From a candidate division WOR-3 bacterium (GTDB lineage Bacteria > Hydrothermota > Tepidihabitantia > Tepidihabitantales > DTDR01), in contig JANXBG010000007.1 in assembly GCA_025060715.1 (NCBI GenBank), positions 1 through 58,530 on the forward strand: a stretch of 58,530 bases of DNA. Reading direction: 5' to 3'. Numbering within the stretch: position 1 is the stretch's first letter; each line of letters starts with the position of its first letter. The notes beneath the pieces were generated by a model. The model was not told the DNA's origin, did no database searches, and saw only the letters and a program-made list of their open reading frames with translations. The position numbers and the translations under genes were made by a program. This document shows positions 11,527 to 51,137 of the stretch, piece by piece.

Positions 11527-11541
11527 ATTTTTTTAACTATT

Positions 11542-11569
11542 ATTTTACTTAATAATCCTAATTTTTCAA
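11542..11569 (-). promoter_or_regulatory. Sigma70-type promoter of the tRNA-Arg/tadA operon
   Basis: TTGAAA-N16-TAAAAT, 15 nt upstream of the tRNA. Confidence 0.6.
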
Positions 11570-11627
11570 GATTTATTGGTTTTATTTATTTGATTTTTGA
11601 AAGATTTTATTTTATAATTAACTTTAT

Positions 11628-33383: not shown

Positions 33384-33437
33384 TTAAATTGATTAAGAGT
33401 GTTAGGTTAAATTTATCCGTATAAAAGTTGGCTGTTG

Positions 33438-33465
33438 TTGAAAAATTTATTTTTTTATGTAAAAT
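33438..33465 (+). promoter_or_regulatory. Promoter of tRNA-Gln
   Basis: TTGAAA-N16-TAAAAT, 9 nt upstream of the tRNA. Confidence 0.6.
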
Positions 33466-33474
33466 TTTATAAAC

Positions 33475-33546
33475 TGGGGGATCGTCTAACTGGCAGGACA
33501 TCTGACTCTGGATCAGATGGTCGGGGTTCGAATCCCTGTCCCCCAG
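33475..33546 (+). tRNA. tRNA-Gln(CTG)
   Basis: TGGGGGA/TCCCCCA stem, TCTGA-CTCTGGA-TCAGA anticodon arm, GTTCGAATC; no CCA. Confidence 0.95.
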
Positions 33547-48929: not shown

Positions 48930-49619
48930 TTAAAAACCAGATTGAAAAGTTATATAAGCAATTCGATTTAAATGGCAATTATTATAATTATGGTTTTTAA
49001 TAATTTCTCTCAATGCAAAAAGGAACCGAACCTGTTCAGTAAAATTCCAAGCAATGCCAGCGTTTAAAAAACCATAATTTTTAATATCTCTTTCCTTTTC
49101 GTAAAAGGACGATGAATATTCAAATATCACATTAAAATCATTTGGTAATAATTGGGTTATTGATATAAAGAAATTAACCTTATCCTGATAATATACCCCA
49201 CCCGAAAAATTAGTATTGGTAATGTCAATTGTTTTACCTAATAATAAATAAAACATTTTTTCTGGAACTGAATAGCCTTTTTTATTAGTATCATAACTGC
49301 CAAATCCTTGGGAATCAAAACCCAAAATTATATCAGGAAAAACAAAAGTTTCTTCACCAACCAATTTTAAACGAAATTGAAATTCGGGACCTCTTTTTTC
49401 GGGAAAAGTTGGTTTACCACTTCCTAAAATACTCTCACCAGAATAAGAGATACCCATATTTAACCTGTCAAATAATCCAATTCCAAAATTTGCCATTATT
49501 CCATTATTTCCTTGAAGCCGAAACCCAATCAAATACTCACCATGCCCTAAAAAAATTGGCGATGGGTTATCAATAAGATAAGTTTGGTTAAAAATTATTA
49601 AAGATAAAATAAAAATCAT
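48930..49619 (-). CDS. Hypothetical protein, probable outer-membrane beta-barrel
   Basis: Short signal peptide, alternating hydrophobic strands, C-terminal Phe; promoter TTGACA-N16-TAATAT-N6-ATG. Confidence 0.75.
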   Translation of the reverse strand: MIFILSLIIFNQTYLIDNPSPIFLGHGEYLIGFRLQGNNGIMANFGIGLFDRLNMGISYSGESILGSGKPTFPEKRGPEFQFRLKLVGEETFVFPDIILGFDSQGFGSYDTNKKGYSVPEKMFYLLLGKTIDITNTNFSGGVYYQDKVNFFISITQLLPNDFNVIFEYSSSFYEKERDIKNYGFLNAGIAWNFTEQVRFLFALREIIKNHNYNNCHLNRIAYITFQSGF

Positions 49620-49929
49620 AAATAAATATTAACAAAAAAATAAATAATGTCAACAAATTTCTAAATGATTTCTAAATGCCGGCCATTGATAAAAATCGTA
49701 TAAAAAGCTAAGAAAACAGCAAGAATAAGACAATATTCATTTCCATTACTTATTATCAATGAGGATGATAAAAGAATAGGAAAAATTGTATTCGAGTATT
49801 ATTGTGTAATATTTATTTTAATTTAAAGAAATTAAATTTTGAAATTTATTAGAAAGTTGGACAGCCTATTATTCTATTATTCTATCTTTTTAAAAATTGG
49901 AAAAAGAAAGAATAACTAACGCTAAAAAA

Positions 49930-50231
49930 ATCTTTATTTATTTTTTTCCTCATTTTCTTTTTTAAATCTTCTTTTATTGTCTTCTTGTCTATCTTTTGTA
50001 TCATATAAATATTTTCTTACCAGTCCCTCAATTTTACTTCATTCCCTACAATACTTTCCCAAAAGAACTTTATTTAATTCCCTTTCTTCACCCCTTCTTT
50101 TTCATCTATATTTTTTCTCTAATTTTGCTAAATAACTTTCACTTTTCTTACAATATTGGGCAATCTCTTAAACTATATCCCTTTTCTATCCGCCATCTCC
50201 TCAACAAGTTCCCCATAAACTTTCTTAACAT
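49930..50231 (-). pseudogene. Frameshifted XRE-family helix-turn-helix protein
   Basis: MLRKFMGNLLRRWRIEKGYSLR, frameshift near 50165, IAQYCKKSESYLAKLEKKYR*; further coding-like fragments with stops to about 49930 (3' end approximate). Confidence 0.7.
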
Positions 50232-50265
50232 CGCCTAATTATAAAGATAAAAAACTTATTTTAAG

Positions 50266-50280
50266 TGTCCTCTAAGGACA
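50266..50280. promoter_or_regulatory. Palindromic operator-like site upstream of the XRE-HTH pseudogene
   Basis: TGTCCT-CTA-AGGACA perfect inverted repeat next to the -35 region; TATAAT at 50243-50238, 6 nt before the ATG. Confidence 0.6.
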
Positions 50281-50381
50281 GAAATTTTTAAACCGAATTT
50301 CCTTATAAGTCTTTATATTTCAAATATTTATTTAAAATTTAAAATAAAAATAGGGAACAATACCCAGTACGGTCCTATCTT

Positions 50382-50531
50382 TGTCTTAACAGGTATCTTA
50401 TTATTTATTTTCGTAATTGCTTTATTTTTTGCTTTCATAAGTATATTAACTTTAATCTTTTAAAATGTTTTGTTGTTTATTTTATTTAGTGTATTATTAT
50501 TTGTCTTTAAGAGTGTCTTGTTGATAGTCTT
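50382..50531. repeat. Array of 13 hexamers at exact 12-bp period (consensus TGTCTT with 6-nt variable spacers)
   Basis: At 50382+12n: TGTCTT, TATCTT, TATTTT, TGCTTT, TGCTTT, TATATT, AATCTT, TGTTTT, TATTTT, TGTATT, TGTCTT, TGTCTT, AGTCTT; all end in TT. Confidence 0.8.
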
Positions 50532-50573
50532 CTTAATTTTAGGGGTATAAACAATGGGATAATATGATATTAA

Positions 50574-51137
50574 TTATGAACCACCTAATTTTTCTAAGGG
50601 GATATATTTTTTACAAAGAGGACAATTTCCTTTTTCAAAAACAGGGATTTCTTTTTTGTAAATAGAGTAATATTCAAAGTCTTCTATCTTCTTAACACTG
50701 CGGTCAATTAAAACTGCGATGCCGGCTATTTTACAACCAAAAGGTTTTAAGGCATTTATTGTTTCCCTTATTGAAGCACCGGTAGTTAAAACATCATCAA
50801 CAATTAATACTCGGTCAGTTTTTTTAATAACAAACCCTCTTTTTATTACCCTTTTCTCATTCTCTTTTTCAGCAATTACTAATTTTTTCTTAAATTGCCG
50901 AGCAAGTTCATAGGCAATAATTGCTCCACCAGTTGTCGGTCCACAAACGATGTCAATCTTTTTATCTTTGAAATTCTTTTTGATTAAAGAACAAAATTTA
51001 GTAAGTAAAACAGGGTTTTCAATTATCCTAAACTTTTCAAAGTAGTATTGGGAATGTAAACCTGAAGATAATAAAAAATGGCCTTCTTTTAAAACCTGAT
51101 ATTTTAATAAAAGTTTTTCAATTTTCTCTTTTTTCAT
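50574..51137 (-). CDS. pyrE: Orotate phosphoribosyltransferase
   Basis: GHFLLSSGLHS, VLIVDDVLTTGAS PRPP motif, CPLCK, KLGG. Confidence 0.94.
   Translation of the reverse strand: MKKEKIEKLLLKYQVLKEGHFLLSSGLHSQYYFEKFRIIENPVLLTKFCSLIKKNFKDKKIDIVCGPTTGGAIIAYELARQFKKKLVIAEKENEKRVIKRGFVIKKTDRVLIVDDVLTTGASIRETINALKPFGCKIAGIAVLIDRSVKKIEDFEYYSIYKKEIPVFEKGNCPLCKKYIPLEKLGGS

Follow-up and report, generated by a model that had tools for sequence, protein, structure and literature searches.

The window analyzed here is the whole stretch of 58,530 nucleotides taken from a candidate division WOR-3 bacterium (contig JANXBG010000007.1 of assembly GCA_025060715.1). It corresponds to contig C77 of the genome that we call G000, which amounts to 1.6 Mb in 86 contigs with 30% G+C. 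A first-pass annotation of the letters had flagged positions 49930-50531, reporting a frameshifted XRE-type helix-turn-helix (HTH) gene with a leaderless promoter, a palindromic operator, paired IHF-like sites and an array of hexamers spaced by 12 bp, and all of these sequence items were found where it had placed them. The flagged stretch sits in a 954-bp gene-free gap between an outer-membrane-like open reading frame (ORF; 48930-49619, minus strand) and an orotate phosphoribosyltransferase-like gene with a Pribosyltran domain (50574-51137, minus strand). Our analysis identifies the region as one copy of a clade-specific, multi-copy chromosomal element, which lies beside the wreck of a duplicated regulator gene. 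DNA contigs from three public sequencing runs, which may include the source sample, reproduced 49620-50150 and 50263-50620 exactly.

The element copy in the window is full length (50263-50551, plus strand; ~289 bp) and was delimited with nhmmer and a covariance model. It opens with P1, the exact palindrome TGTCCT-CTA-AGGACA (50266-50280), which is flanked by an A-run and a T-run and is the candidate operator of the XRE-family protein. P2, a 27-bp AT-rich palindrome of the form ATAAGT..TATTT-C-AAATA..TTTAT (50305-50331), starts about 20 bp after P1 and is followed by P3, an A-rich stretch with ATAGGG (the GATAGGG block) and a CCC partner (50350-50369, plus strand). The remainder is a T-rich tail of exact 12-bp (24-bp) periodicity (50380-50551, located by periodicity scoring), which includes the 13 hexamers of consensus TGTCTT, exactly 12 bp apart (50382-50531); the 12-nt register of the tail begins at the ATA of P3. 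The window copy scored E = 2.9e-70 against the nhmmer profile of the six copies in its genome, and R1, a covariance model of the 5' module, gave 133.5 bits at 50251-50394. The layout is constant among copies, namely a P1 palindrome of 15-19 bp, an AT-rich P2 palindrome of 27-31 bp, the A-rich/ATAGGG block of P3 and 14-20 tail units.

Six full copies are present in genome G000 (contigs C77, C85, C1, C6, C66, and C15; nhmmer E from 1e-70 to 1e-78), as well as two further weak partial copies, and 15 additional copies were gathered from four other genomes of the genus; three or four related families of the order have more. R1 detected the element in 10/66 genomes of the order, namely in 6/6 genomes of the genus and in G008 (15 copies), G018 (7), G012 (1), and G009 (3, weak). 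Over the phylum sample it found the element in 7/151 genomes, all within three families; R1 is not sensitive, having missed at least 16 copies in G012 and the copies in G011, G013, and G016, all of which were recovered by pattern or neighborhood searches. The element occupies 6-15 chromosomal sites per genome. An XRE gene adjoins only the C77 and C85 copies among the six of G000, and the neighbors of the other four are housekeeping genes (encoding a HEAT-repeat protein, PurL, Sua5, PurM, PurQ, a GTPase, and DUF1614), among which no functional theme was found. According to crude ORF calls (≥90 aa) around 46 copies, the left neighbor is divergent in 38/45 copies, and the strand of the right neighbor is split 20:20. 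The left gene lies at distances between about 0 and 830 nt, so the element does not form a constant component of that gene's promoter. The positions of the element are orthologous in several species, the sole criterion being how long and how distant the flanking ORFs are.

Searched at E ≤ 10, Rfam 15 yielded nothing relevant to the window region; four related loci gave only tRNAs at E ≤ 1. Plasmid and phage records held no match to the element, no target-site duplications or terminal inverted repeats were seen by eye in the printed flanks, and no transposase lies next to the element copies. A narrow literature search on 12-bp or 12-nt periodicity and dodecamer repeats found nothing relevant, which is not proof that the element is undescribed. 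Within that scope we agree with the first-pass annotation, which did not recognize a described system here. Even if the coating proposal made below should fail, the element stands as a clearly delimited and conserved non-coding feature, present in many copies, that keeps an exact 12-bp register and matches nothing in the libraries searched.

The 12-bp period of the window tail reached z = 11.5 against first-order Markov sequences and z = 11.8 against shuffles, and 0/1000 random sequences attained its periodicity over periods 3-30. The array went unreported by Tandem Repeats Finder, its units being too degenerate. When 263,792 windows of 156 nt were scanned over the genome, the six best period-12 regions were the six element tails; the tail described here ranked second, with 0.629 bits per column against a mean of 0.207 (sd 0.051). 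Among the 33 further tails scored, 26 had a best period of 12 or 24, the seven exceptions being four G002 copies that have no tail, two G008/G018 copies, and one copy in which period 6 tied with period 12. The tail measures 170 nt in 15/21 copies of the genus and 170-240 bp across lineages. Its composition changes from lineage to lineage: T-rich in this genus, C/T-rich and G-poor in G008 and G018, and A/G/T-rich in G009, and units containing G and C also occur, for example CAGACTCGGGAG in G011. The dinucleotides with the strongest periodicity are TT and then AA in every lineage. Counted from the GGG of P3, the TT phase is coherent (R 0.34 in 24 copies, 0.415 in 17, and 0.595 in 3), peaks at exactly 12, and is alike in two families (8.7 and 8.8). 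Only the period and the register of the tail are conserved. In G012, the loci L166, L170-L178, and L159 carry very regular arrays of ~20 units, in which the frame that starts from the conserved ATA of P3 reads as I-x-x-P/S/A repeats with no canonical start.

A search of the whole G000 genome with the P1 pattern, allowing up to one mismatch, returned seven sites, compared with 0 for the reversed control. Six of them are the P1 of the full copies, which reads TGTCCT-N3-AGGACA in 6/6 cases; the seventh, TATCCTTTTAGGACA, has one mismatch and is located on contig C1 (21169-21183), outside any detected element. All seven stem pairs of P1 show compensatory changes over 55 copies. The arms differ between genomes, even at the orthologous gene-linked locus: TTGCAT..ATGCAA in G001, G003, and G005, TGGCAT..ATGCCA in G004, and TTTCCT..AGGAAA in G002, G012, and one odd copy of G000. 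All 22 copies of g4 (genomes G008 and G018) have TTATCT-N4-AGATAA arms, with a GATG center in 16/22. The genome G012 carries three full-length paralogous genes, each adjoining a module with its own palindrome, and contains ATATTAC-TGTCA-GTAATAT at 12 exact sites and ATATTAG-CCACA-CTAATAT at 4. Within the genus, the recognition helix of the protein varies with the palindrome core (S-Y-L with TCCT, S-D/E-L with GCAT), which amounts to a single event on the tree. The half-site centers of the 15-bp P1 are about 10 bp apart, and in the intact gene copy on contig C85 described below P1 abuts the -35 hexamer of TTGAAA-16-TATAAT. Judging from these sequences, P1 behaves like a cognate operator, being uniform within a genome and specific to a genome or a paralogue.

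P2 is what the first-pass annotation had read as two back-to-back IHF-like motifs. The IHF-type consensus WATCAANNNNTTR matches it with one mismatch in the window and with none in some G008 copies, and two HU/IHF-family genes are present in the genome. The match lies inside a symmetric palindrome, and the central base of this palindrome flips between copies, which argues against an asymmetric IHF site. Over 21 copies 85.7% of the P2 cells are paired, and the core TAAGT..ACTTA is kept in the families f1 and f4. In P3, ATAGGG is invariant in 21/21 copies, and 51-54 of 55 copies retain the GGG/CCC pairs. Taken together, the three palindromes have 86% of their cells paired over 55 copies; such conservation of pairing is not diagnostic of RNA, because symmetric protein sites would give the same pattern. 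Exceptions of the G.U and A.C types number 79 and 75 over all palindromes, which is not decisive for the strand. In the G008/G018 copies (e.g., L034 and L044) an extra G-run follows P3, and with the resulting GGGG/CCCC/GGGGGG arrangement either of two hairpins could form, but not both. In 5/22 of these copies ATG replaces the conserved ATA, opening a mini-frame of 12 codons across those hairpins.

The regulator gene beside P1 is broken. Its first fragment, corresponding to codons 1-40 with the HTH (50116-50231, minus strand), is 97% identical at the DNA level to an intact gene on contig C85. The ATG at 50231-50229 on the minus strand opens MLRKFMGNLLRRWRIEKGYSLRD, the frame is shifted by a 2-nt deletion between 50170 and 50169, and XRE-like sequence continues in the other frame, into stops. 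Two more fragments on the minus strand correspond to codons 218-238 (49999-50057; 86% identity) and codons 270-281 (49958-49991; 91% identity), and the remainder of the gene is gone. A six-frame search of the relic returned no HTH_3 match. The intact form is seen in a contig from another run, in which 535 letters replace the 58 found in the window. The intact gene on C85 encodes 299 aa, adjoins another element copy, and matches Pfam HTH_3 with 33.5 bits (cut-off 23). To judge from this comparison, the XRE gene of the window is the remnant of a duplicate.

The call of a leaderless promoter in front of the relic is reasonable: TTAAAA, a 15-nt spacer, TATAAT (50243-50238), and 6 nt to the ATG (50238-50264, minus strand), with P1 lying 1 nt from the -35 position. 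In the intact copy the promoter is TTGAAA-16-TATAAT, which scores 11/12 and has its -10 hexamer a few bases before the ATG; the relic has lost one base of the spacer by a 1-nt deletion. The local consensus is provided by tRNA genes of the window (33390-33475 and 11528-11600), which have clear sigma-70-type promoters, TTGAAA-N16-TAAAAT. A Bacteroidetes-type -33/-7 promoter was dropped because the tRNA genes use TTGAAA/TAAAAT, and a sigma-54 promoter was rejected by eye, its GG-GC spacing being wrong. The annotation had described the copy as decaying, and this is correct for the XRE gene but not for the DNA element beside it, which is intact: its palindrome is perfect, and its periodicity is exceeded by only one other tail in the genome.

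A profile of the C-terminal 207 residues of the intact protein detected full-length relatives of ~300 aa in all searched genomes of the families f3, f4, and f5 and in 4/5 other genomes of the same genus, and many genomes have several paralogues. The family f2 gave only weak partial protein hits (18/44 genomes). Homologues carry no other name than 'helix-turn-helix transcriptional regulator [candidate division WOR-3 bacterium],' and a scan of the contig collection with the XRE protein found no relatives. A 12-periodic array lies directly upstream of 10/16 family genes examined, reading away from the gene, and these ten represent the families f1, f3, f4, and f5. The linked arrays have z-values of 13.6 in G000, 10.2 in G003, 7.7 in G004, 9.9 in G005, 21.1 and 18.7 in G012 (C87 and C43), 5.2 in G009 (C15), 7.9 in G013, and 5.6 in G016; the array of G011 was judged by eye because its contig ends within it. 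Left out of the 16 were the second paralogue of G005 and the gene of G007, both for want of upstream sequence, and that of G001, which is cut by a contig end. This adjacency persists despite a protein identity of about 25% and unrelated tail motifs. The first-pass annotation was right to treat the XRE-HTH gene, the operator-placed palindrome, and the 12-bp array as belonging together. Arrays do occur with no HTH gene beside them, in 4/6 copies of G000, an outcome that the first-pass annotation had itself named as refuting its model, although these solo copies carry the same palindrome.

A second regulator paralogue of 311-327 aa exists in the genus (G003:C16, L184; G004:C14, L185; G005:C16, L186; G000:C57; G000:C61, L074). 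Its module consists of GTTTCC-N5-GGAAAC followed by TATACCACCTT, with no periodic tail, and the G002 copies are of the same kind. At G011:C116 (L189), a regulator homologue of family f3 adjoins the palindrome TGTGCCTA-A-TAGGCACA and an array of CAGACTCGGGAG units that is rich in G+C and is cut off by the contig end.

The intact protein is basic (pI 9.7, with 74 K+R in 299 residues). The AlphaFold model of the whole protein (13 sequences, pLDDT 82.8) has an XRE head at residues 1-80, and the rest of it is entirely helical. With Z 10-13.6, the N-terminal 80 residues match XRE repressors such as ClgR, C-proteins, and SinR. The C-terminal part, which is predicted to form a four-helix bundle preceded by long helices, was also modeled alone (AlphaFold, 9 sequences, pLDDT 84.1) and compared with 48,161 representative chains of the PDB. 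A score of Z ≥ 8 was reached by only 8 of these chains; major capsid proteins from archaeal filamentous viruses fill the first six places. The best match of the predicted domain was ORF140 of AFV1 (3fbz; Z 12.9, rmsd 2.5 Å over 93 residues), followed by ORF132 of AFV1 (3fbl; Z 11.8), the SIRV coat protein (3f2e; Z 11.6), and SSRV1 (6wq0; Z 11.3); these matches at Z 11.3-12.9 have rmsd values of 1.4-2.5 Å over 71-93 residues and share the topology of the four-helix bundle. The AFV1 virion chain (5w7g; Z 10.9, rmsd 4.1 Å) and SIFV (6wq2; Z 9.5, rmsd 3.6 Å) were matched over residues 4-203 and 2-207. The best unrelated chain had Z 8.5, and SFV1 and PFV2 had 7.5 and 7.2. A structure search with the whole protein gave the same capsid hits; a search of BFVD with the whole model gave HTH hits only, and no virion genes were found near the loci. 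A prediction made without DNA says little on the conformation of the N-terminal helical arm. To our knowledge, no cellular homologue of the DNA-wrapping capsid fold of archaeal filamentous viruses has been reported.

In these viruses (SIRV2, AFV1, SFV1, and PFV2), a capsid dimer holds 12 bp of A-form DNA, according to the published reports (PMC5517147; PMC6105669; PMC7189273), and 12 bp is also the period of the gene-linked arrays. Two independent observations agree: an array in which only the exact 12-bp register is conserved is linked across four families to one gene family, and the C-terminal domain of that family resembles proteins known to cover 12 bp of DNA per dimer. We propose that the protein binds P1 through its HTH and covers the tail with its C-terminal domain, placing one dimer on every 12 bp. 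We favor this reading while giving it somewhat less than an even chance. A protein dimer would dock by its HTH on P1, which would place it at the -35 hexamer of its own leaderless promoter, so that the gene would regulate itself. The all-helical, capsid-like C-terminal domain would then polymerize along the tail, one dimer per 12-bp unit, and the outcome would be a defined nucleoprotein filament at each of 6-15 chromosomal sites. Both the binding and the coating at 12 bp per dimer are what we infer from the DNA and the model, and a physiological role may lie in local silencing or insulation, in titration, or in the protection of DNA at high temperature. A bolder form of the proposal, which we regard as doubtful, would make the protein of these hot-spring bacteria a cellular relative of the archaeal filamentous virus capsid protein fused to a sequence-specific XRE head, which would dock on its cognate palindrome, the capsid-like domain coating positioned 12-bp arrays with one dimer per unit at the 6-15 sites, perhaps in A-form; it would be a programmable 'mini-nucleocapsid' and a candidate cellular source, or an exaptation, of the capsid fold.

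Several observations weigh against the coating proposal. No array was found at 6/16 family genes, namely those of G002, G012 C24 (a truncated element), G008 (2.2 kb from the closest element), G009 C45 (whose available upstream sequence is just 185 nt), and the second paralogue of G003 and of G004, and there are modules that have no periodic tail, i.e., the four G002 copies, the modules beside the second paralogue, and G000:C61, in which no long tail is visible. In G012 two different palindromes share one tail motif, and the tail, if recognized, is therefore not recognized through the specificity of P1. The proposal gives no role to the ~100 bp between P1 and the tail, with the conserved P2 and P3. 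In the inner pairs of P2 and P3, read on the plus strand, G.U exceeds A.C, which would suit a plus-strand RNA, and the open ATA frame in 11/13 CTATT-type tails of G012 keeps a coding reading alive. As for the protein, its resemblance to the capsid proteins is one of predicted structure only: a Foldseek search with the C-terminal model had no hit at E ≤ 0.001 (the SIRV2 virion chain 3j9x had a probability of 0.99 but E = 1.3), a sequence profile found no relative in the PDB, and the structure tool warns that helical bundles below about Z 13 can match generically. If the mechanism were true, the element would be a new kind of bacterial chromatin element, in which a sequence-specific head nucleates a capsid-like coat on short, pre-phased arrays, and a bacterial gene family with the capsid fold would bring the origin of the viral capsid within reach of testing. 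As an experimental system it is concrete, with one protein, one palindrome, and one 170-bp array, and G012 offers natural pairs of paralogue and palindrome for specificity swaps.

The closest known systems each share some of these features. The capsid proteins of SIRV2, AFV1, SFV1, SIFV, and PFV2 come, like the protein described here, from hot environments and resemble its predicted C-terminal domain, to which capsid proteins of this kind are the six best structural matches; the period of the arrays is their 12 bp per dimer. The two differ in that the gene here is bacterial, chromosomal, and fused to an XRE HTH, with no sequence similarity to the viral proteins and no virion genes nearby, and in that the virus proteins coat whole genomes without sequence preference, whereas the DNA partner here would be short, positioned, periodic arrays beside a palindrome. 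The viral capsid proteins share no sequence similarity even among themselves, according to one report (PMC7189273). Centromere-binding HTH proteins of plasmids provide another comparison: TubR binds tubC, which has seven 12-bp repeats, and StbA binds stbS, which has 9-bp repeats with 2-bp spacers; both are autoregulated, and such a protein is believed to build a filament or superhelix along its array (bioRxiv 10.1101/2022.04.29.490116). Short direct repeats with a fixed period of 11-12 bp beside the gene of an autoregulated HTH protein resemble the arrangement at the 10/16 family genes that adjoin an array. Unlike ours, the tubC and stbS arrays are on plasmids, consist of 7-10 well-conserved repeats that are read by the HTH itself, and serve partition; the elements described here have 14-20 degenerate units with a lineage-specific motif and no enrichment of HTH half-sites, and stand in 6-15 chromosomal copies among housekeeping genes with no plasmid or phage match, and no search for a partition NTPase (TubZ, ParM, or ParA) was made. 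XRE repressors (434/P22, C-proteins, SinR, and ClgR) are alike in the N-terminal 80 residues (Z 10-13.6; HTH_3 33.5 bits) and in having a 15-bp palindrome by the protein's own promoter, but the protein here has a C-terminal extension of 220 residues with a different fold, and its operator is repeated in dispersed elements together with two more palindromes and a periodic tail. In RNA attenuation of the TRAP type, 11 triplet repeats are wrapped around a protein ring. The resemblance is that a long unstructured stretch, with a short motif repeated at regular intervals, adjoins alternative hairpins; the period here is 12, not 5-6, neither motif nor strand composition is kept across lineages, and there is no leader-gene relation, the next gene being about 0 to 830 nt away.

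Other explanations of the element were weighed on the same data. We consider it unlikely that the element is a small non-coding RNA gene on the plus strand, in which P1 and P2 would be upstream regulatory DNA with the XRE protein acting at P1, P3 would be a 5' stem-loop, and the tail would be an unstructured scaffold or sponge for an oligomeric RNA-binding protein. The register fixed from P3, the left neighbor that is divergent in 38/45 copies as for a unit with its own promoter region, and the G.U excess in the inner P2/P3 pairs all fit this explanation, as do a G002 copy resembling an RNA of ~85 nt that ends in a hairpin and a T-run, the hairpin and T-run that end the copy at the intact locus, and a tail no more structured than shuffles (z -0.8 to -2.1), as expected for a protein-binding single strand. 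However, no sigma-70-type promoter was found inside the module on the plus strand, even though the tRNA genes of the window use TTGAAA-N16-TAAAAT, and the composition of the same strand switches between pyrimidine-rich, G-rich, and A-rich, which is hard to fit to one RNA-binding specificity. YC dimers are not periodic, Rfam has no match, RNAalifold supports 3 pairs only, and short AU-rich stems would presumably be weak in a hot-spring organism. Quite improbable, in our judgment, is a small repetitive, mostly hydrophobic peptide of I/L-x-x-x tetrapeptides, encoded by the tail from the ATA of P3 and controlled by the neighboring XRE protein, loosely like the regulator-pheromone pairs of RRNPP systems. 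Twelve nucleotides make four codons, the plus-strand ATA frame does read as hydrophobic repeats, its register starts at the invariant ATA in the groups g1 and g4 and in G012, and the frame is open in 10/21 copies of the genus as well as in the 11/13 CTATT-type tails; moreover, some length changes are multiples of 3 and not of 12 (-9, -9, +6), 5/22 g4 copies have ATG in place of ATA, and the model of the whole protein bears a weak resemblance to Rgg, PlcR, and ComR (Z 8.2-9.2). These last matches have rmsd values of 5-8 Å (7-8 Å for those to the RRNPP proteins), and none is in the top 50 for the C-terminal-only model. The frame has no ATG, GTG, or TTG start and has stops inside the array in 11/21 genus copies (among the six of G000, those of the window, C66, and C15) and in 3/3 CTAAT-type tails of G012, which have 1-4 each; in the G012 unit ATT-V-NNNN-T-B-CT the fixed positions alone exclude stops from it. 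The pN/pS ratio is 0.65 in this frame and 0.46-0.99 across all six frames, none of which stands out, close pairs of tails differ without bias by codon position ([4,5,5], [10,10,12], and [14,10,14]) and thus show no third-position excess, another plus-strand frame has even fewer stops, and the implied peptides are unrelated between lineages.

The model of the first-pass annotation itself, in which the tail is an array of half-sites for the same HTH as the palindrome (iteron-, centromere-, or titration-like) that loops to P1 through an IHF bend, now seems very unlikely. It started from the window consensus TGTCTT, one base off TGTCCT, and could draw on the short repeats bound by the autoregulated TubR and StbA, as described in the preprint cited above, on the two HU/IHF-family genes, and on the match of P2 to WATCAANNNNTTR with 0-1 mismatch. 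In each of the seven genome groups tested, however, the tails match the P1 half-site as often as shuffling predicts (z between -3.1 and +0.6; 6 matches versus 6.0 expected in G000), and species with the TTGCAT palindrome keep a GTCTTA/GTATTA tail like that of G000. The resemblance of TGTCTT to TGTCCT is therefore a coincidence; P2 is symmetric with a center that flips between copies, and the elements stand on the chromosome between housekeeping genes, with no plasmid or phage match. Highly improbable as well is a selfish or neutral dispersed repeat, similar to a miniature inverted-repeat transposable element, whose minisatellite tail would be kept by slippage or homogenization and whose linkage to the gene would be synteny only. 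The element is indeed multi-copy and intergenic with sharp ends, adjacent 24-nt units are nearly identical in some copies (L004), pointing to recent duplication, and tail motifs turn over fast between lineages. Such a repeat is difficult to reconcile with the orthologous positions in several species (known from flanking ORF length and distance only), with a tail of 170 nt in 15/21 copies and a P3 register conserved across families, with the adjacency of gene and array in four families and for three paralogues of one genome, and with the lack of terminal inverted repeats (by eye) and of an adjoining transposase. We give least credence to a cluster of intrinsic terminators or an attenuator on the minus strand, at the end of an upstream transcript and before the next gene. 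Plus-strand A-runs precede P1 and P3 in every lineage and would put U-runs after the hairpins on the minus strand, the C-run/G-run/C-run of g4 could switch between two hairpins, and the left gene is co-directional with the minus strand in 38/45 copies. Against this, the strand of the right-hand neighbor is split 20:20, the stems are short (only 6 bp, of which 3 are G-C pairs), the left genes are served by promoters of their own located beyond P1, and the center bases of P1 are conserved within genomes (GATG in 16/22 g4 copies; TGTCA/TGACA at the 12 exact G012 sites), a feature for which a plain terminator has no need; nor would this explanation account for the periodic tail.

Apart from these alternatives, three ordinary identities were tried for the tail or the element and rejected. 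An ordinary protein-coding tail had 36, 226, and 22 stops in the frames +1, +2, and +3 over 21 copies. A structured RNA over the whole element gave minimum free energy z-values of -0.8, -2.1, -1.1, and +0.3 against shuffles, and 3 pairs in RNAalifold. An idealized Rho (rut) site was considered, the Rho gene being present in genome G000, but YC dimers lack a 12-nt period (27.6 in the genus, where the null is 24); C is at or below G in the tails of the genus that were scored, and the G009 tails are C-poor.

Some further features were seen around the two gene-linked copies of G000. The frame of the phosphoribosyltransferase gene stays open for 37 codons past its TAA (50574-50576) into the array, to about 50462 on the minus strand; this open extension was not seen at the C85 copy and is taken as chance. 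At C85, an smc gene lies directly downstream of the intact XRE gene on the same strand, after a gap of ~320 nt (L009, 3..2411, minus strand). A scan of 12 loci found the SMC Walker motif at C85 alone; several of the 11 other loci are short. Next to the intact C85 locus, a gene for an 805-aa protein (L009, 4033..6450, minus strand) encodes a Por/T9SS C-terminal sorting domain at a borderline score of 26.9 bits, against a cut-off of 27.

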